Shown piece by piece: positions 2,348 to 48,703 of a DNA stretch of 64,000 nt. Made by a program: the position numbers and the translations under genes. Below the pieces are notes generated by a model, which ran no database searches, had not been told where the DNA came from, and saw only the letters and a program-made list of their open reading frames with translations. The stretch lies in NCBI GenBank assembly GCA_023244855.1, contig JAHFLO010000001.1, positions 5,895 through 69,894 on the forward strand, read 5' to 3'. The stretch's first letter is position 1; every line of letters begins with the position of its first letter. This DNA is from Candidatus Harrisonbacteria bacterium (GTDB taxonomy: Bacteria; Patescibacteriota; Minisyncoccia; UBA6257; UBA11618).

Positions 2348-2480
2348 TTAAAACGTCACGCCTCACTTCGTGACTTCCTTAATACTATCATTATGTAAAC
2401 GAATACTATGTGTGGATAAGTATGGAAATGCGAACCCCTTCTAACCCATCCCCGTTCGATTCCGCCCACGGTCATCCAAG

Positions 2481-2518
2481 CATACGAAAATACCCCGATA
2501 TCGGGGTATTTTCGTATG
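2481..2518. terminator. Perfect 38-nt palindromic hairpin directly after tRNA-Ala (bidirectional terminator-like)
   Basis: catacgaaaataccccgata|tcggggtattttcgtatg, with A/T runs flanking the GC core on both strands. Confidence 0.7.
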
Positions 2519-4712: not shown

Positions 4713-5126
4713 TTAGGCGGCGGTCAGGGCGAAGGGTTGGAGATGAGCTGGCTTCAGCGCGACGTAGATGATCGATGACGTGATCGTCGTGGTTGCACTG
4801 GTTTCTTTGCCGGCGGTGTCGTCGAAGACGGCGACTTGCGCAATGGGCACGGATTGATCCGCACCCGGTTGAAAGCCTTCTTGACGGGCGACTTGTGCCG
4901 CCGTATCAGCCGCGATCGCCGCATCGGTGATCGCGAAACCCGCATCGTCGTCGAAGGCCGCAGCCTGAGCAAAGCCTTGCACTGCCGCCGCGGACGTACC
5001 AGTCGCGAGCGTCATTCCGCCGGAAGCAATCGTAATCGCCGTGATGAGCATGACCGCGCCCACGACACAAATCGGACCAGCAATCTCGCGAAACCAAATC
5101 CACCAAGCACGTTTTCGCCACTTCAT
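4713..5126 (-). CDS. Hypothetical membrane-anchored Ala/Asp-rich protein (islet gene)
   Basis: Start set at MKWRKRAWWIWF (5126), preceded by GAGGGAG. One TM helix. The track's longer start (5183) lacks an RBS. Confidence 0.5.
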   Translation of the reverse strand: MKWRKRAWWIWFREIAGPICVVGAVMLITAITIASGGMTLATGTSAAAVQGFAQAAAFDDDAGFAITDAAIAADTAAQVARQEGFQPGADQSVPIAQVAVFDDTAGKETSATTTITSSIIYVALKPAHLQPFALTAA

Positions 5127-7027: not shown

Positions 7028-7069
7028 CAAAATAAAACCCCCTATAATAGGGGGTTTTATTTTGTGCCC
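7023..7069. terminator. Long palindromic terminator overlapping the tRNA-Arg 3' end
   Basis: gggcacaaaataaaaccccctat-a-atagggggttttattttgtgccc, with 23-bp arms. Confidence 0.7.
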
Positions 7070-7070
7070 A

Positions 7071-7175
7071 AGGACTCGAACCTATGGCGACGTTCGAATT
7101 CATCCAGAGCTTATGCGAGGTTAGAATTCGATAAGGAGTGCCAGAGGGAAGCGCAGCGACGAGGAAGGTCCTTAT
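7071..7175. repeat. Structured intergenic element, copy A (inverted pseudo-copy of the tRNA-Arg 3' half plus the two-hairpin module)
   Basis: aaggactcgaacct (7070-7083) is the reverse complement of the tRNA T arm (7005-7018). Hairpin 1: cgaattc[ATCCAGAGCTTATGCGAGGTTA]gaattcg (7095-7130). Hairpin 2: ataagga[..CAGAGGGAAGCGCAGCGACGAGGAAGG]tccttat (7131-7175). Confidence 0.7.
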
Positions 7176-7310
7176 ATCAGCAGCTTATATTATTTGACAT
7201 GATTGCTAATTCCGTGCCATAATAGGCACGCGTTGTTACACGCACGGAAACCTTGAAAACCGAATAGTTTAGAACCTGTTTTCCCTAACCCCTTTGGAGG
7301 AGACTCTGCG

Positions 7311-8129
7311 ATGAGTAAGCTGGTTTACGGAGGGAAAGGCACCGAAGTGCCGTCCCAAGAGCTGCTGCAGCTCGTGCAGCGCAACGGTATTGAATGCCCC
7401 CATGGCATCACTGCCCGCGAGCTTAATGACTTGTTGCAAAAACAATGGCTACGGACGACTGTCCGCGCGGAAGTCGAAAAAGCTCTTCCGCAAGACGAGG
7501 ACATCCACCTCTTGCGAGAGCTCGGTATGATCGACGAAGTGCGGCCGGCACGGGCGAATTACGTGGGTACGCTCGTTCTCGGCGGCTATGCCGCTGCCAT
7601 GCGCCGGCGGCTTGCGTTCGCCATCAGCGAATGGAACGCGAACGACGCGCTCGATACGGGGACCATCTGGTTCCTTACGGGCGAACGGCCGCGAAGGGAC
7701 GAAAACGAAAGCGCCGACCTCCTCTTTACGCAGGGCGAAATCCCCTTCAAGCCGGACTGGACGAAGCCCGAAACCATGCCCGCGACCGAGACGGAAATTG
7801 CCCGCATGATCTGGGGCCAATCGGCAATCCCCACGGGGATGATGGCTAATTTCGTCGATACGCGGCTCCAGCCGGACGGCAAGGGAGGATTGAAAAATCC
7901 CAATACGGCAGACACGTTTGCCGCCTTCCTCGCGATGGAGCCGGACTCAGGGAACTATCTCCTCGCTTCAAGCCAACCCTATGTGCAACGGCAAACGTTG
8001 AATGCGACGAACACGCTGCCTTTTCCCCAATTCAACATTTTCGAAATGGGGCCGGCGGCGCTACCCGAAACGCCGCTCAAGATCTTCCTGGACGAAACGG
8101 CCCGATTACTCTTCGAACTGCTCAAGTAA
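7311..8129 (+). CDS. Hypothetical protein (islet gene); weak DUF218/YdcF-like LVLGG...FLTGERP pattern
   Basis: 272-aa ORF. GGAGG 10 nt upstream, TTGACA-18-CATAAT promoter at about 7194-7223, terminator at 8162-8191. Confidence 0.55.
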   Translation: MSKLVYGGKGTEVPSQELLQLVQRNGIECPHGITARELNDLLQKQWLRTTVRAEVEKALPQDEDIHLLRELGMIDEVRPARANYVGTLVLGGYAAAMRRRLAFAISEWNANDALDTGTIWFLTGERPRRDENESADLLFTQGEIPFKPDWTKPETMPATETEIARMIWGQSAIPTGMMANFVDTRLQPDGKGGLKNPNTADTFAAFLAMEPDSGNYLLASSQPYVQRQTLNATNTLPFPQFNIFEMGPAALPETPLKIFLDETARLLFELLK

Positions 8130-11917: not shown

Positions 11918-11956
11918 CAAAAACAATAACCCCAAACAGGGGTTATTGTTTTTGTG
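11916..11956. terminator. Palindromic terminator after tRNA-Glu
   Basis: cacaaaaacaataacccc-aaaca-ggggttattgtttttgtg. Confidence 0.75.
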
Positions 11957-12052
11957 CGACGAAGGAGGTTTTGCGATTTATCCCGAGCTTAAGCGAGGTT
12001 AAAATCGCAAAATTTCGTCAGAGGGAAACGAAGTGACGATGACGATCATTTT
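11957..12052. repeat. Structured intergenic element, copy B (two-hairpin module)
   Basis: Hairpin 1: gcgattt[ATCCCGAGCTTAAGCGAGGTTA]aaatcgc (11973-12008). Hairpin 2: aaaat.tcgtc[AGAGGGAAACGAAGTGACGAT]gacga.catttt (12009-12052). Confidence 0.7.
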
Positions 12053-12166
12053 TATCAACGATCGATGCCATGCATCGAGCCAGACACCAAGACTTTACTT
12101 TTTAATAAAAAGACGTATAATATCCCGCAGACCTTACCCATACAACCCTTTTGCACGAGGTATACC

Positions 12167-29629: not shown

Positions 29630-29659
29630 AAAAACGCCGGATATCGATCCGGCGTTTTT
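29630..29659. terminator. Bidirectional hairpin terminator
   Basis: aaaaacgccggatatcgatccggcgttttt. Confidence 0.8.
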
Positions 29660-30548
29660 ATTCTTCCTCACTCCTCCTTTTGCCGTGGAACGCCTTATAA
29701 ACTTCGCGGAGATGCTTGTTGGTGACATGGGTATAAATCTGCGTGGTGGCTATGGAGGCATGGCCGAGCATTTCTTGCACCGAACGAATATCCGCGCCAT
29801 TCGCAAGTAAGTCCGTGGCGAAGCAGTGGCGGAGGGTATGCGGCGAAAGCTTCTTACCTATAATCCCGGCTTGCACCCCATACCGCCCTATCATACGCTC
29901 CACCGCGCGCGGGGTTATACGCCCAATTATCTTTCCCTTCAGGATACTCACGAACAAAGGGATCTCCGCATCCGTGCGCCTGTCCATATATGCCGCCACC
30001 GCCTTGCACGCCGTAGGCGATAAGAATACCAGCCGCACCTTCCCTCCCTTCCCCCGCACCGTAAGCTCGCCTTTTTTTAAATCAATAAAACGGTCGAGTG
30101 CGCACAGTTCCGAAAGCCGTAAACCGGTACAAAAAAATAATTCGAGCATCGCCTTGTCACGCACGCCTGCGAGCGTCTTAGTATCCGGCGCGTCGAGCAG
30201 TCGTTCTAATTCAACGTGACTTATAATCTCCACTTGCCGCGCCGGCGCCTTTAATAATTCAATACGCTCGGGTGGGACGGTTTCATGCCCGCGCTTCGCT
30301 AAATATTTTAAAAAACTACGGAGGGCTATTACATACTGACTCTGCGTCGCCTTCTTTAAGTCCTCGCGCGCGAGAGCGAGACGGAAATCACGAATACCCT
30401 GCTCCGTAATATCGCTCACATCGGTAATTTTTGCGGCCGTAAGGAACCGCTCGAGGTAATGGGCGTACGCGCGCCGCGTGACCACCGCCCGCCCCCGCTC
30501 CACCTCTAAGTAGTCAAGATATTCCTTCAGAACCGTCAAAGCTTTCAT
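29658..30548 (-). CDS. Tyrosine recombinase XerC/XerD-type
   Basis: HTLRHCFATDLL..GADIRSVQEMLGHASIATTQIYTHV catalytic region. Start at MKALTVLKEY (30548), with a TATATT box 6 nt upstream. Confidence 0.85.
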   Translation of the reverse strand: MKALTVLKEYLDYLEVERGRAVVTRRAYAHYLERFLTAAKITDVSDITEQGIRDFRLALAREDLKKATQSQYVIALRSFLKYLAKRGHETVPPERIELLKAPARQVEIISHVELERLLDAPDTKTLAGVRDKAMLELFFCTGLRLSELCALDRFIDLKKGELTVRGKGGKVRLVFLSPTACKAVAAYMDRRTDAEIPLFVSILKGKIIGRITPRAVERMIGRYGVQAGIIGKKLSPHTLRHCFATDLLANGADIRSVQEMLGHASIATTQIYTHVTNKHLREVYKAFHGKRRSEEE

Positions 30549-30599
30549 GGTTTGAATATACCGCAAAAAGCGTGATATGCTCTAAATCTTCTAAAGACT

Positions 30600-34357: not shown

Positions 34358-34512
34358 AGTTCGCTACTCCCTCAACTACGTACATTGGACTTGGAAAAGA
34401 AAGAGGTGCGACGCTGCGCCTCTCGCCGAGTGTATCTTAAAATAATCCTATAACCGGCGTTTTTCAAGTATGCGTTGCCATAATCCCCTGTCGTTGCTAT
34501 ATTCACAGCCAT

Positions 34513-34587
34513 GGGCGCCTAGCTCAGTGGTAGAGCGCTTCTTTTACACAGAAGATGTCGGGGGTTCGATTCCCTTGGCGCCCACCA
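34513..34587 (+). tRNA. tRNA-Val (anticodon UAC), CCA encoded
   Basis: Acceptor GGGCGCC/GGCGCCC, anticodon arm CTTCT-TTTACAC-AGAAG, T arm GGGGG-TTCGATT-CCCTT, ends ACCA. Confidence 0.85.
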
Positions 34588-34625
34588 ATAATAAAAGCCC
34601 TTATTTGGGGCTTTTATTATTGGTG
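34583..34625. terminator. Palindromic terminator overlapping the tRNA-Val 3' end
   Basis: caccaataataaaagccc-ttatttg-gggcttttattattggtg. Confidence 0.75.
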
Positions 34626-34743
34626 ATTGCACTAGGGGGAATCGAACCCGGAGGGGCGAGAGTTTTTAATGAGCTCGCGAAGCGAGCGATTATAAAAACC
34701 GATGTCTCGACCGCAGGAAGAGGCGATTCCCTTGGCGCCCACC
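34626..34743. repeat. Structured intergenic element, copy F (inverted pseudo T arm, core, direct copy of the tRNA-Val 3' end)
   Basis: gggggaatcgaacccgg (34635-51) is inverted relative to the tRNA T arm. The core GGCGAGaGTTTTT..hairpin..AAAAAC..GTCTCGACCG is shared with copy G. gattcccttggcgcccacc (34725-43) is identical to 34568-86. Confidence 0.7.
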
Positions 34744-34834
34744 TTCCTTTTTCTTATTGACGCTCCCCCGCCGCTACGGTATATATATCCCCAGCACCGA
34801 CCCATTCGTAGGACTTTTTAAACGGAGCCACACC

Positions 34835-34990
34835 ATGACCAGCTTTCAAGAAGAAGGCTTATTCACTGAACGAGAAGGACAAGGAACCACGGAAAAAGAA
34901 GAACGCGACGAGGACAGAAAAAAGGATGGTCCGTCGCTCCCACCTGCCGTTCTCGAGTACGTCGAAACGCACGGGGGCGCCAATGATTAA
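34835..34990 (+). CDS. Possible 51-aa acidic small protein
   Basis: MTSFQEEGLFTEREGQGTTEKEERDEDRKKDG... Followed by the terminator cccgcc..ggcgggtttttt (about 35016-35052). Confidence 0.35.
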   Translation: MTSFQEEGLFTEREGQGTTEKEERDEDRKKDGPSLPPAVLEYVETHGGAND

Positions 34991-43942: not shown

Positions 43943-44013
43943 GCAGGTATAGTACAATGGTAGTACGTTTGGTTGCCAATCAAAATACACGGGTTCGATT
44001 CCCGTTACCTGCT
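43943..44013 (+). tRNA. tRNA-Gly (anticodon GCC)
   Basis: Acceptor GCAGGTA/TACCTGC, anticodon loop TTGCCAA, discriminator U, T arm ACGGG-TTCGATT-CCCGT. Confidence 0.85.
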
Positions 44014-44022
44014 CAGTCCAAC

Positions 44023-44051
44023 AAAAAGACTCCCTATAAGGGAGTCTTTTT
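44023..44051. terminator. Bidirectional terminator shared by the convergent tRNA-Gly and tRNA-Arg
   Basis: aaaaagactccc-tataa-gggagtcttttt. Confidence 0.8.
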
Positions 44052-44066
44052 GTTTGCTTTAGACAG

Positions 44067-44138
44067 TGCGCCCACGAGGAATCGAACCTCGATTAGAGGA
44101 TCCGCAATCCTCCGTTCTATCCATTAAACTATGGGCGC
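44067..44138 (-). tRNA. tRNA-Arg (anticodon GCG)
   Basis: Acceptor GCGCCCA/TGGGCGC, anticodon arm GAGGA-TTGCGGA-TCCTC, T arm CGAGG-TTCGATT-CCTCG. Confidence 0.8.
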
Positions 44139-47943: not shown

Positions 47944-48027
47944 GGAGGGATAGCCTAGCGGTTAAGGCAAGGGATTGCTAATCCCTGGCTCGAAAGGGCC
48001 TCGTGGGTTCGAATCCCACTCCCTCCG
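47944..48027 (+). tRNA. tRNA-Ser (anticodon GCU)
   Basis: Acceptor GGAGGGA/TCCCTCC, anticodon arm AGGGA-TTGCTAA-TCCCT, long variable arm, T arm GTGGG-TTCGAAT-CCCAC, discriminator G. Confidence 0.85.
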
Positions 48028-48031
48028 CAGA

Positions 48032-48071: not shown

Positions 48072-48232
48072 CTTGTGAAAGAGTGGAATTCGAACCGAAG
48101 GCGAGCGTTTTTCCCCAAGCGCTAAAGCGCTTGGTCGAAAAACGCGAAGTCTCGACCGAGCTTGCGAGGGAGAGGCGAATCCCACTCTTCCATTGCGTGC
48201 GTAATCGAAAAACGGCAGGCGAATCCCACTCC
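48072..48232. repeat. Structured intergenic element, copy G (homologous to F), with two extra direct copies of the tRNA-Ser T-loop/acceptor segment
   Basis: gagtggaattcgaacc (48081-96) is inverted relative to the tRNA. Core GGCGAGcGTTTTT..ccaagcgc-taaa-gcgcttgg..AAAAACGCG..GTCTCGACCGAGCTTGCGAGG. gaatcccactc recurs at 48177 and 48221 (tRNA copy at 48011). Confidence 0.7.
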
Positions 48233-48703
48233 TCAGTCGCTCTCGCTCTTCACATCCACCCCGCTCCGTAAAACCCCCACAAGCACATCCGCCCCAGCAG
48301 CAACCACAAGAGAGACAAAAATAACCATAAGGCCCATAGCAACGCCACCCGCAATGTCGTCGCCAGGCCGAACTATCATTAAGTAGGCCTCCGGCAGCGC
48401 GACGAGACCAACGAGCAACAGCGCACAGCGCCGTATCGTCCGCATGGCTTTCACAGTTACCCGTGAGAACGCCTTACCCTGTCCTACGCACCCCAACGCC
48501 TTGAATGCGTTATAAACCGCGACGAAAAACGGAATAGACGCCGCATACGCATACGCTAAGAACAAATCGTTGAAGTAAACCTGGAAGAACGTGGCGTCCA
48601 CATTTCTACCCTCGAAGTGAGGCTCCCATAGCATGAAGGTAAGGACACCTATACCGATAAGCACGACGACCGCCTGAAGGAATACTAAGGAGATTCTTTT
48701 CAT
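48233..48703 (-). CDS. Hypothetical 4-TM membrane protein (DUF2975-like, tentative)
   Basis: 156 aa with four hydrophobic helices. Its stop abuts the last tRNA-Ser-like repeat. Confidence 0.5.
   Translation of the reverse strand: MKRISLVFLQAVVVLIGIGVLTFMLWEPHFEGRNVDATFFQVYFNDLFLAYAYAASIPFFVAVYNAFKALGCVGQGKAFSRVTVKAMRTIRRCALLLVGLVALPEAYLMIVRPGDDIAGGVAMGLMVIFVSLVVAAGADVLVGVLRSGVDVKSESD

Follow-up and report, generated by a model that had tools for sequence, protein, structure and literature searches.

Why is the 3′ end of a transfer RNA (tRNA) gene repeated, letter for letter, a short distance behind the gene itself? In the 64,000-nucleotide (nt) stretch of a Candidatus Harrisonbacteria bacterium genome analyzed here (the window), the 19-nt sequence GATTCCCTTGGCGCCCACC occurs exactly twice, at 34568–34586 within the tRNA-Val(UAC) gene and at 34725–34743 downstream of it. 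The chance expectation is 0.02 matches, and two matches were found in none of 100 dinucleotide-preserving shuffles. The first-pass annotation had read this duplication as the possible scar of an integration event. The duplication itself is real, and the full exact direct repeat extends to 20 nt (CGATTCCCTTGGCGCCCACC, 34567–34586 and 34724–34743, 157 nt from start to start). Copy 1 is nt 56–75 of the intact tRNA-Val(UAC), and the junction lies in the T loop between U55 and C56. Copy 2 is the right arm of a module of ~120 nt (34624–34744), which belongs to a family of structured units located behind tRNA genes. The features of the locus, and those of a second unit in the window, are listed below.

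34475–34503, plus strand: putative promoter-like site TTGCCA-17-TATATT upstream of tRNA-Val (consensus scan, 10/12 matches)
34513–34587, plus strand: tRNA-Val(UAC), intact, CCA encoded (ARAGORN; Rfam tRNA, 68.9 bits)
34567–34586, plus strand: repeat copy 1, tRNA nt 56–75, from C56 in the T loop to C75 (exact 20-nt repeat)
34583–34625, no strand assigned: hairpin T1, a perfect 18-bp stem (34583–34600/34608–34625) with A-rich and T-rich flanks (inverted repeat I1)
34632–34648, plus strand: left arm, with the 5′ strand of helix P1 at 34632–34644 and the anti-T-loop motif GGAATCGAACC at 34638–34648 (motif and inverted repeat)
34645–34723, plus strand: three-way-junction core (alignments A1, A2, and A4; covariation in the long hairpin and P3)
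34724–34743, plus strand: repeat copy 2, the right arm (exact repeat and family-wide identity to the adjacent tRNA)
47944–48028, plus strand: tRNA-Ser(GCU), followed by the second family unit in the window (ARAGORN)
48072–48196, plus strand: second unit, L subtype (107 bits with covariance model R1, but itself a seed sequence of R1)

The 137 nt between the two copies are composed of a terminator-type hairpin (T1), an inverted copy of the T arm, and a hairpin named element F by the first-pass annotation. That annotation named the terminator and element F but overlooked the inverted copy, which is exact over 13 nt (34637–34649, copying the T arm at 34562–34574). Element F (34660–34699) is part of a long A/U-rich hairpin in the core. 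The stem of T1 begins within the ACCA of tRNA-Val. Judging from its sequence, T1 looks like a bidirectional terminator; the consensus terminator scan of the window made no call there. The core consists of J1/2 (AACCCGG), P2 and the long A/U-rich hairpin with tandem G·A pairs (about 34653–34706), the P3 hairpin UC-GA-CC(GCA)GG-AA-GA (34707–34721), and the 3′ end AAGAGG (34718–34723). The left-arm motif pairs with the first 7–12 nt of copy 2 to close the three-way junction. Copy 2 is divided into the 3′ strand of P1 (34724–34735, tRNA nt 56–67) and a mostly unpaired tail (34736–34743), which contains the acceptor 3′ strand, A73, C74, and C75. Folding of the region 34618–34750 gives a single long, branched hairpin for each of the two strands (z = −2.8 and −3.4).

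Is this arrangement a peculiarity of one locus? The second unit behind tRNA-Ser(GCU), which escaped the first-pass annotation, indicates otherwise. A hairpin again separates the tRNA from the unit, and the right arm CGAATCCCACTC (48176–48187) matches tRNA-Ser nt 56–67 and then diverges, while the pairing with its own left arm is kept. A degenerate further arm copy, CGAATCCCACTCC, is located at 48220–48232 and abuts the stop codon of a minus-strand open reading frame (48233–48703). In a close relative (L004, NusA 95% identical to that of the window; L numbers denote the loci compared), the same architecture is found behind tRNA-Val, tRNA-Gly(GCC), and tRNA-Ser(GCU): a hairpin, the inverted T-arm motif, a near-identical core, GAGAGG, and then a copy of the 3′ end of the tRNA in question. 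The 53-nt core segment 34660–34712 recurs behind tRNA-Gly in L004 with 94% identity (50/53 nt). Across the closest relatives, the module follows tRNA-Val, Gly, Arg, and Ser.

The frequency of the arrangement was determined in an unbiased set of 130 tRNAs from the window and 80 NusA-anchored genome loci. With a criterion of at most two mismatches in 16 nt within 500 nt, 12/130 tRNAs have a downstream copy of their own 3′ end and 0/130 have an upstream one. A separate motif count gave a unit of this family (type 1) at 12/130 tRNAs. In one lineage (L006), 3/4 sampled tRNA genes carry a unit, so that the proportion reaches up to three quarters in some lineages. All strong matches of the covariance model R1, which was built from seven seed units including both window units, immediately follow a tRNA and share its strand; among them are the window tRNA-Ser unit and, in L005 and L006, two to three tandem units behind tRNA-Val.

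The family is defined by TCGAACC ... GTYTCRA ... AGRGGCGAWTCC on the tRNA strand no more than 75 nt 3′ of a tRNA, by a right arm corresponding to nt 56–74, and by the P1/P2/P3 fold. TCGAACC is invariant in alignment A1. The Val unit of the window possesses all the family motifs, lies 55 nt behind tRNA-Val, matches in 20/20 right-arm positions, and fits the L subtype; its R1 score of 105 bits is high by construction, the unit being a seed sequence. The three-part motif was also used to scan metagenome and viral contigs. More than 120 metagenome stretches contain it, and many of the contig names suggest groundwater surveys; the family counts given here and below (131, 91, 103, 72, 58, and 43) are counts among the matches listed. 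In 91 of the 131 matches, a same-strand tRNA ends 24–75 nt upstream (mode about 60), and 26 tRNA species are represented. The remaining matches are mostly at contig ends, at transfer-messenger RNA (tmRNA)-like 3′ ends (L105, L155, and L159), or at tRNA-like ends missed by ARAGORN, and about seven are chance matches in GC-rich coding DNA. The units at L105 (about 7680–7760), L155 (about 7870–7950), and L159 (about 4980–5060) stand behind putative tmRNA 3′ ends (..GGGGGTTCGATTCCCCCCATCTCCAC); ARAGORN was run in its tRNA-only mode. The scan of the viral contigs with the same motif gave 0 matches, and a BLAST search of phage and plasmid collections with the unit found none. The linkage to tRNA 3′ ends is strict, and the bacteria concerned are Patescibacteria of the Paceibacteria type. 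The cores fall into two subtypes, S (58 unique sequences) and L (43 unique sequences, including both window units).

The right arm is specific to the tRNA that it follows, and it is sharply limited at C56 and nt 74. When right arms are compared with their neighboring tRNAs, the longest run of exact identity begins at C56; it reaches 17 nt or more in 64/91 cases and has a mode of 19, while non-cognate control pairings share mostly 4–8 nt. Identity per position is 0.8–1.0 at nt 56–74, falls to 0.53 at nt 75, and is about 0.3 beyond, against a background of 0.29. Among the 74 unique pairs of right arm and tRNA, 46 are 100% identical over nt 56–73.

Several arms deviate from this rule. In L102 and L123, the right arm mismatches the adjacent tRNA and instead agrees fully with the 3′ end of tRNA-Gln from other genomes; L083 has a Gly-like arm behind tRNA-Lys, and L137 has a Gly(GCC/UCC)-type arm behind tRNA-Gly(CCC). 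In L109 (7030–7110) and L115, units with Gln-type arms have a conserved stretch of about 80 nt ahead of their hairpin (..CTCGAGATGGGTYGC..ACAGGGCTTGAWCC..GGTTCTA..CCAGC), which may represent the 3′ portion of a tRNA that contains an intron or is unusual in some other way.

The possibility that the left arm is templated by the local T stem was also considered. Its 3′ side is constant core (15% identity as compared with 7% in shuffled sequences) and its 5′ side is only partly complementary to nt 63–65, so this idea was rejected. Pairing of the acceptor tail with the upstream flank or with the core was likewise discarded, since the cognate sequence gains only 1.4 kcal/mol with the flank and nothing with the core. 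The only weak partner of the tail is an extension of the upstream hairpin.

Is the interior of the unit under structural constraint? The structure of the S subtype was tested on the MAFFT alignment A3 of 58 S units. It comprises P1 (left arm with copy nt 56–65), P2 (four pairs, two of them invariant G·U), Pa (6 bp), and P3/Pb with tandem G·A pairs. In this alignment 94.0% of the cells are paired as compared with 77.7% after shuffling, and 0/500 shuffles reached that value. The covariation score is 0.424, as compared with 0.136 for shuffled alignments (equaled by 0/500) and 0.05–0.09 for slid partners, and double changes are observed in 6/6 Pa pairs and 5/7 P3/Pb helix pairs. Covariation is likewise seen in the L subtype, where it affects the long hairpin and P3. 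The Pa loop in the S units is GNNGA (GAAGA in 44/58) and is GNRA in every 4-nt case; the tandem G·A pairs are present in 56–57 of the 58 units, and the junction J1/2 is AACCGCG in 53/58. Positions 1–7 of the left arm form Watson–Crick pairs in 77–100% of 103 units. P1 is solid over 7 bp, partial over the next three, and random beyond, so that most of the copied acceptor strand trails unpaired.

The strand preference should be noted here. In 9/14 units, the tRNA strand folds better than its complement, and G·U pairs number 50 as compared with 33. Since the invariant G·U pairs would turn into C·A on the opposite strand, these are RNA-type signatures of the tRNA strand. Covariation, G·U pairs, tandem G·A pairs, and GNRA-type loops in the sequences thus point to an RNA encoded on the tRNA strand. 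An alternative pairing, GUYUC with GAGGC, would extend P3, reaches into C56 and G57, and may compete with the P1/P2/P3 junction.

None of the 4227 families of Rfam 15 matches the window unit, or the loci L006, L030, and L033, with a score close to the gathering threshold or above it. The sub-threshold matches beyond tRNAs are mostly to microRNA, plastid untranslated-region, and leader models, and those in the hairpin/unit region are to microRNA models. Known ribozymes (hammerhead and others), riboswitches, Y RNA, 6S RNA, SRP RNA, and RNase P RNA were rejected as identities of the unit, having given no Rfam match at E values up to 10 in the window or up to 5 in the three other loci. A minus-strand tRNA-like or tmRNA-like gene converging on a shared terminator was also rejected: ARAGORN and Rfam found nothing, the ends form no acceptor stem, and on that strand C·A mismatches would stand in place of the conserved G·U pairs. 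Neither a T-loop intron nor a split tRNA fits, because the upstream tRNA is always complete and splicing in silico gave only tRNAs that were already intact.

How would such a unit be transcribed? A hairpin of at least 6 bp lies between tRNA and unit in 60/72 family members, and another hairpin follows the unit in 51/70. In the other 12/72, the tRNA is followed by a hairpin-free spacer of 24–41 nt, so that these units would have to be co-transcribed with the tRNA. For the window unit, sequence inspection leaves the promoter-like site at 34475–34503 as the only plausible source of transcription.

The units vary in number and in presence. Behind tRNA-Val in L188, of which the 3′ end is identical to that in the window, 2.4 perfect tandem periods of 150 nt were found, and behind tRNA-Ile(UAU) of the same locus 1.8 perfect tandem periods of 128 nt; both arrays lie within 915–2240. 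The order in each period is nt 56–74, hairpin, left arm, and core, and the arrays stop at arbitrary points of the period. L005 and L006 carry two to three tandem units behind tRNA-Val and differ from each other in unit number and order; the unit that they share is about 90% identical and contains a compensatory change from GGCC/GGCC to GGCT/AGCC. The tail decays in L005, L006, and the Ser unit of the window while P1 is kept. As for single sites, tRNA-Gly(GCC) is unit-free in the window and filled in L004–L006, and tRNA-Ile(UAU) is filled in L188 and empty in the window.

For tRNA-Val itself, the first-pass annotation had reasoned that insertion would be refuted if all relatives carried the arrangement with no empty sites and the second copy evolved under constraint as part of a functional RNA. 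The findings are divided. The closest relatives with the locus (L004, L005, and L006 from the genome scan, L188 and L154 from the metagenome scan) all carry the Val unit, and the first 7–12 nt of copy 2 are structurally constrained as a helix strand. In the unbiased set, however, 4/21 tRNA-Val(UAC) genes carry a unit, these being in the four closest genomes, and the 17 more distant ones are without it.

Two rearrangements touch these sites. In the window (43943–44138), tRNA-Gly(GCC) and tRNA-Arg(GCG) converge on one shared bidirectional hairpin and are 51 nt apart, and in L004–L006 the two genes are in tandem on one strand, both with units. Comparison of the two layouts places the left arm of the unit where the 3′ end of the convergent tRNA lies in the window. 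The similarity of the Gly terminator and flank of the window to the L004 hairpins is too short and too low in complexity to decide which hairpin is original. The tRNA-Val cassette (window 34494–34735, L004 7560–7875) is inverted between the two genomes from the −10 region of the promoter to nt 12 of the right arm; the flanks differ, and one breakpoint lies within the right arm at window position 34735.

What do the brackets formed by the two tRNA-end copies contain? In nearly all cases the inserts are 93–180 nt long. Three brackets carry genes, in each case between the tRNA end (or the previous arm) and the module.

L089, 4972–5736: 704 nt, a Pol-beta-type nucleotidyltransferase
L099, 628–1723: 1022 nt, a 218-aa secreted protein
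L109, 6901–9437: 2467 nt, DUF5677, S-adenosylmethionine-dependent (SAM) methyltransferase, and bPH_2 genes

In L099, an open reading frame for a LAGLIDADG endonuclease is located immediately upstream of tRNA-Tyr. Large autonomous versions of the element were sought and dismissed, as the distances between repeats are 112–196 nt apart from the three cargo brackets, which are integrase-free, and one tRNA duplicate.

The 137-nt bracket of the window is non-coding and holds no integrase gene, as the first-pass annotation had stated. The nearest recombinase gene, which is the only one in the window, is of the Xer type and lies 4 kb upstream of the bracket (29658–30566, minus strand). It adjoins a periplasmic-binding-protein gene and ftsH, and synteny with FtsH is kept in relatives, for which reason it is probably a housekeeping gene. 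The protein scores 125 bits on an integron-integrase model (cut-off 265) and 220.7 on a XerA/integron-integrase model (cut-off 220), and reaches neither the XerC nor the XerD equivalog cut-off. The window itself comes from the chromosome of a member of the Patescibacteria (Parcubacteria/Paceibacteria, Harrisonbacteria-like), with FtsH, NusA, trigger factor, ClpP, and TyrRS among its housekeeping genes and 13 dispersed tRNA genes (ARAGORN).

From these observations we lean, with a confidence only a little above even, toward a dual reading: the unit is a module of the read-through trailer RNA that also marks, and probably participates in, an insertion anchored at the T loop. A typical unit consists, usually after a terminator-like hairpin, of the left arm GGAWUCGAACC, a conserved three-way-junction core ending in GAGAGG, and a right arm copying nt 56–74 of the upstream tRNA. 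The left arm, which is antisense to the T loop, pairs with nt 56–62(65) of the copy and closes the junction, and the acceptor part trails mostly unpaired. The unit would be read through from the tRNA promoter and fold as RNA, and the family would spread by insertion at U55|C56. The tRNA would remain intact because the insert would be flanked by nt 56–74 on either side, which is the situation at classical tRNA attachment (att) sites. The window cassette would then be an empty one, with a hairpin and a module only. The cognate end might originate in four ways: a replacement end borne by the element, a fixed 19-bp target duplication, joining to a tRNA 3′ fragment at the RNA level, or selection or gene conversion. 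The suggestion of a miniature non-autonomous element that targets the T loop, made in the first-pass annotation, thus comes close to the picture drawn from the U55|C56 junction, the 3′-end duplication, the many tRNAs, the tandem arrays, and the variable presence.

Likeness to known tRNA att sites supports the insertional half. Williams reportedly classified att sites in tRNA and tmRNA genes (Nucleic Acids Res, in 2002), with a T-loop sublocation among them. As at such sites, the insert is bounded by a repeat from the T loop to the tRNA end, the tRNA is reconstituted and intact, tmRNA or tmRNA-like genes are used, and tandem and cargo-bearing versions exist. The units differ from tRNA-borne integrative elements in having no integrase in the bracket, inserts mostly of 93–180 nt, a structured and covarying module as insert, and a single core that occurs at 26 tRNA species, where each integrative lineage would have one att specificity. 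T-loop-targeted insertion with duplication of the tRNA end is of a known kind, and the structured-RNA component is what is new.

Miniature inverted-repeat transposable elements (MITEs) have terminal inverted repeats of their own, a fixed short target-site duplication (2–15 bp), and dispersed sites. The units differ from these and other derivatives of insertion sequences: their arms are inverted over only 7–10 nt and the right one derives from the tRNA, at least 19 nt are duplicated, and the sites are not dispersed, strong matches being all 3′ of tRNA genes or tmRNA-like ends.

A number of findings weigh against the dual reading. No bracket, including the three that carry genes, contains an integrase, recombinase, reverse transcriptase, or transposase, and we know of no precedent for a 19-bp target duplication. 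Since 60/72 units stand behind a terminator-like hairpin, their expression would depend on read-through. Classical att logic assigns one element lineage to each tRNA, whereas near-identical cores occur at different tRNAs; in L188, the Val and Ile cores are 100% identical over about 66 nt and the arms and hairpins are locus-specific. Paralogous units within one genome are usually well diverged and have compensatory changes, which fits old selected copies better than an active selfish element. The identity of right arms to their tRNAs is distributed bimodally, not as gradual decay would give. The acceptor-strand tail is identical to the tRNA in both the window and L188, even though the hairpin and outer arm are unalignable between them and the core is 86% identical. 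The conserved tail and the bimodal distribution suggest selection or conversion acting on the tail, unlike a pure by-product of insertion.

Several of these points would be accounted for by a resident functional RNA that is not mobile, namely a stable 3′-trailer RNA released by tRNA processing, with the repeat kept by selection. Such an RNA would mimic the 3′ half of its cognate tRNA (T-stem strand, acceptor strand, discriminator, and C74) toward RNase Z, the CCA-adding enzyme, 3′ exonucleases, or toxins, or it would pair with the 5′ acceptor strand of the tRNA. The strong covariation, the RNA tertiary motifs, the old and compensated paralogues within one genome, the bimodal identity with its limit exactly at the end of the tRNA gene, the tail kept between the window and L188, and the units that lack a preceding terminator all agree with it. 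We nevertheless regard it as unlikely, though as a contender to be taken seriously. It leaves unexplained why perfect tandem arrays occur in which the hairpins are duplicated too, why brackets with genes terminate in a module, and why some arms match another allele or tRNA (L102/L123, L083, and L137). Moreover, the tail decays freely in L005, L006, and the window Ser unit while P1 is kept, and the small pairing gain found for it, 1.4 kcal/mol with the flank, is attributable to the hairpin extension.

Known trailer RNAs and tRNA mimics resemble the unit in part. The 3′ETS-leuZ of E. coli is a short small-RNA sponge without a tRNA-derived arm, a three-way junction, or a multi-locus family. It shares with the units the position of a conserved element in a tRNA trailer on the tRNA strand; the units differ in forming a multi-locus family with a tRNA-derived arm and a three-way junction. 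The tRNA mimics (the tRNA-like domain of tmRNA, viral 3′ tRNA-like structures, and mascRNA) also have T-arm and acceptor-strand sequence at the 3′ end, and the units occur behind tmRNA-like ends as well. Unlike these, the unit contains a literal copy of the 3′ strand only (nt 56–74) without a 5′ acceptor strand, its T-loop bases are sequestered in a helix, and it has no match in the Rfam tRNA clan.

In a distinctly doubtful explanation, one of a categorically new kind, the core with its three-way junction would act as a small RNA, either catalytic or guiding, that targets the T loop. The anti-T-loop arm would pick CGAWUCC, and the 3′-terminal ...GAGAGG-OH would be joined to C56; the element would attach itself to the 3′ fragment of the paired tRNA or tmRNA by cleavage and ligation or through a guided host enzyme. 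Attachment of this sort would explain why each genomic copy carries nt 56–74 of its neighbor. If this is true, the units would represent an RNA-guided mobile element targeting the tRNA T loop in minimal-genome bacteria, and possibly a new ribozyme class.

The unit could alternatively be a folded single-stranded DNA site, like the attC site of integrons, at the boundary of cassettes that are often empty. A host tyrosine recombinase (Xer-like or IntI-like) would act on it, with the T loop as the equivalent of attI, and the covariation would reflect hairpin folding of DNA and not of RNA. Integron arrays consist of short sites conserved in fold more than in sequence, with zero to few promoter-less genes and the integrase outside the cassettes. 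The core consensus of their sites is RYYYAAC/GTTRRRY with the crossover at G|TT, and the terminal structure of attC is variable. The units resemble this arrangement in several respects: the brackets are cassette-like (0–3 genes) and integrase-free, arrays occur, a single strand folds into a duplex recombination box with compensatory changes (P1, P2/Pa, and P3/Pb), P1 re-creates the T-loop duplex from one strand, and both ATCGAAC and GTTCGAT agree with the consensus at 6/7 positions. The Xer-type recombinase, at 220.7 with a cut-off of 220, also just reaches the XerA/integron-integrase model. However, the junction is GAGAGG|CGAWTCC (55|56) and not G|TT, the tRNA-specific block of 19 nt far exceeds the integron core, and the interior is strongly conserved and of the RNA type, with GNRA-type loops and invariant G·U pairs. 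The units are anchored at many tRNA genes instead of one attI; the IntI, attI, and Pc platform was not found in the window, which has only the Xer-type recombinase, syntenic with FtsH and probably housekeeping. We see this as a slim possibility.

Local duplication by replication slippage or template switching at the palindromes of the T arm and terminator, without a dedicated function and with cores homogenized by gene conversion, is very improbable. Such palindromes are natural sites of stalling and switching, the end points of the duplications vary (from 19 to about 100 nt, and from 1.1 to 2.4 periods), and the identical Val and Ile cores of L188 with differing flanks look like the product of such events. 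A conserved core of 70–95 nt in distant genomes, covariation with GNRA loops, and the boundaries of the copied block, constant at C56 on the left and most often nt 74 on the right, are all left unaccounted for.

The scar of a decayed prophage, integrative conjugative element, or genomic island in tRNA-Val, which the first-pass annotation had also offered, is scarcely credible despite the classical att signature of a tRNA 3′-end repeat from the T loop and a tyrosine recombinase gene 4 kb away, because the 137-nt insert is a conserved, covarying module present behind 26 tRNA species and tmRNA-like ends on more than 100 contigs, phage, plasmid, and viral matches are absent from the collections searched, and the recombinase is Xer-type, outside the bracket, and syntenic in relatives.

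Group I introns in Patescibacteria tRNA genes are located in the anticodon loop (35/36), are full ribozymes, and must splice (PMC13011429). They share with the units the phylum and the tie of a structured RNA insertion to tRNA genes. The differences are that the tRNA is intact at the units, which are only ~100 nt long, match no Intron_gpI model, and leave no split tRNA. The full-text literature search found no description of the family, only these anticodon-loop introns, classical genomic islands, and unrelated matches. With no Rfam match and no literature description, the family is probably unreported.

The family would then be a widespread and highly structured RNA-like element in the Patescibacteria, whose tiny genomes tolerate little non-coding DNA. 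Its architecture, a conserved junction core fused to the literal last 19 nt of the upstream tRNA, is unusual, and it connects the att sites that mobile DNA uses in tRNA genes with structured non-coding RNAs, two normally separate fields. The family raises the questions of how insertion at the universal T loop could avoid killing an essential single-copy tRNA, whether genes can be captured in cassette-like fashion without a resident integrase, and whether tRNA-end mimics encoded in trailers act in tRNA maturation or defense in the candidate phyla radiation. For annotation, such repeats should not be read as prophage scars, and TCGAACC...AGRGGCGAWTCC is a ready marker of the family.

Other modules are found in similar positions. 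A type 2 family has the same bracket logic with another core (GGGGTCGGGAA..TTCCCGTGGCGGA..CAAACCGAGGGGTTTGAA..GAAGCGACG), and its copy of the tRNA end begins at nt 58/59, 2–3 nt later. It was located at L033 (7080–7275), L041 (9400–9582), L059 (15930–16114), and L078 (15900–16100); the one locus compared with Rfam, L033, had no match. A type 3 module (..ATCCCGAGCTTAWGCGAGGTTAAAAT.. CAGAGGGAAGCGCAGCGACGAGG) follows a hairpin and an inverted arm resembling a tRNA 3′ end, at 7029–7190 (tRNA-Arg UCG) and 11919–12060 (tRNA-Glu UUC) in the window, and is not accompanied by a long direct repeat of the tRNA end. It is also nested in the P2 hairpin of the tRNA-Val unit of L004 (7600–7700). The tRNA-Ala CGC trailer (about 2400–2517, minus strand) shows only the hairpin and inverted arm with a shorter variant, and is at most a candidate site of the type 3 module.

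Directly after repeat copy 2 of the window, in the region 34761–34990, there is a promoter-like sequence TTGACG-17-TATATA. It is followed by a 51-codon open reading frame (34835–34990), which the ENA assembly annotates as a gene and for which no family match was obtained. Only tRNA-Val and tRNA-Pro of the 13 window tRNAs have an encoded CCA, and most of the others end in N73-C74 followed by an A-rich trailer. A long perfect hairpin with A/T flanks stands at the tRNA end, or a few bases from it, in most but not all of the window tRNAs.

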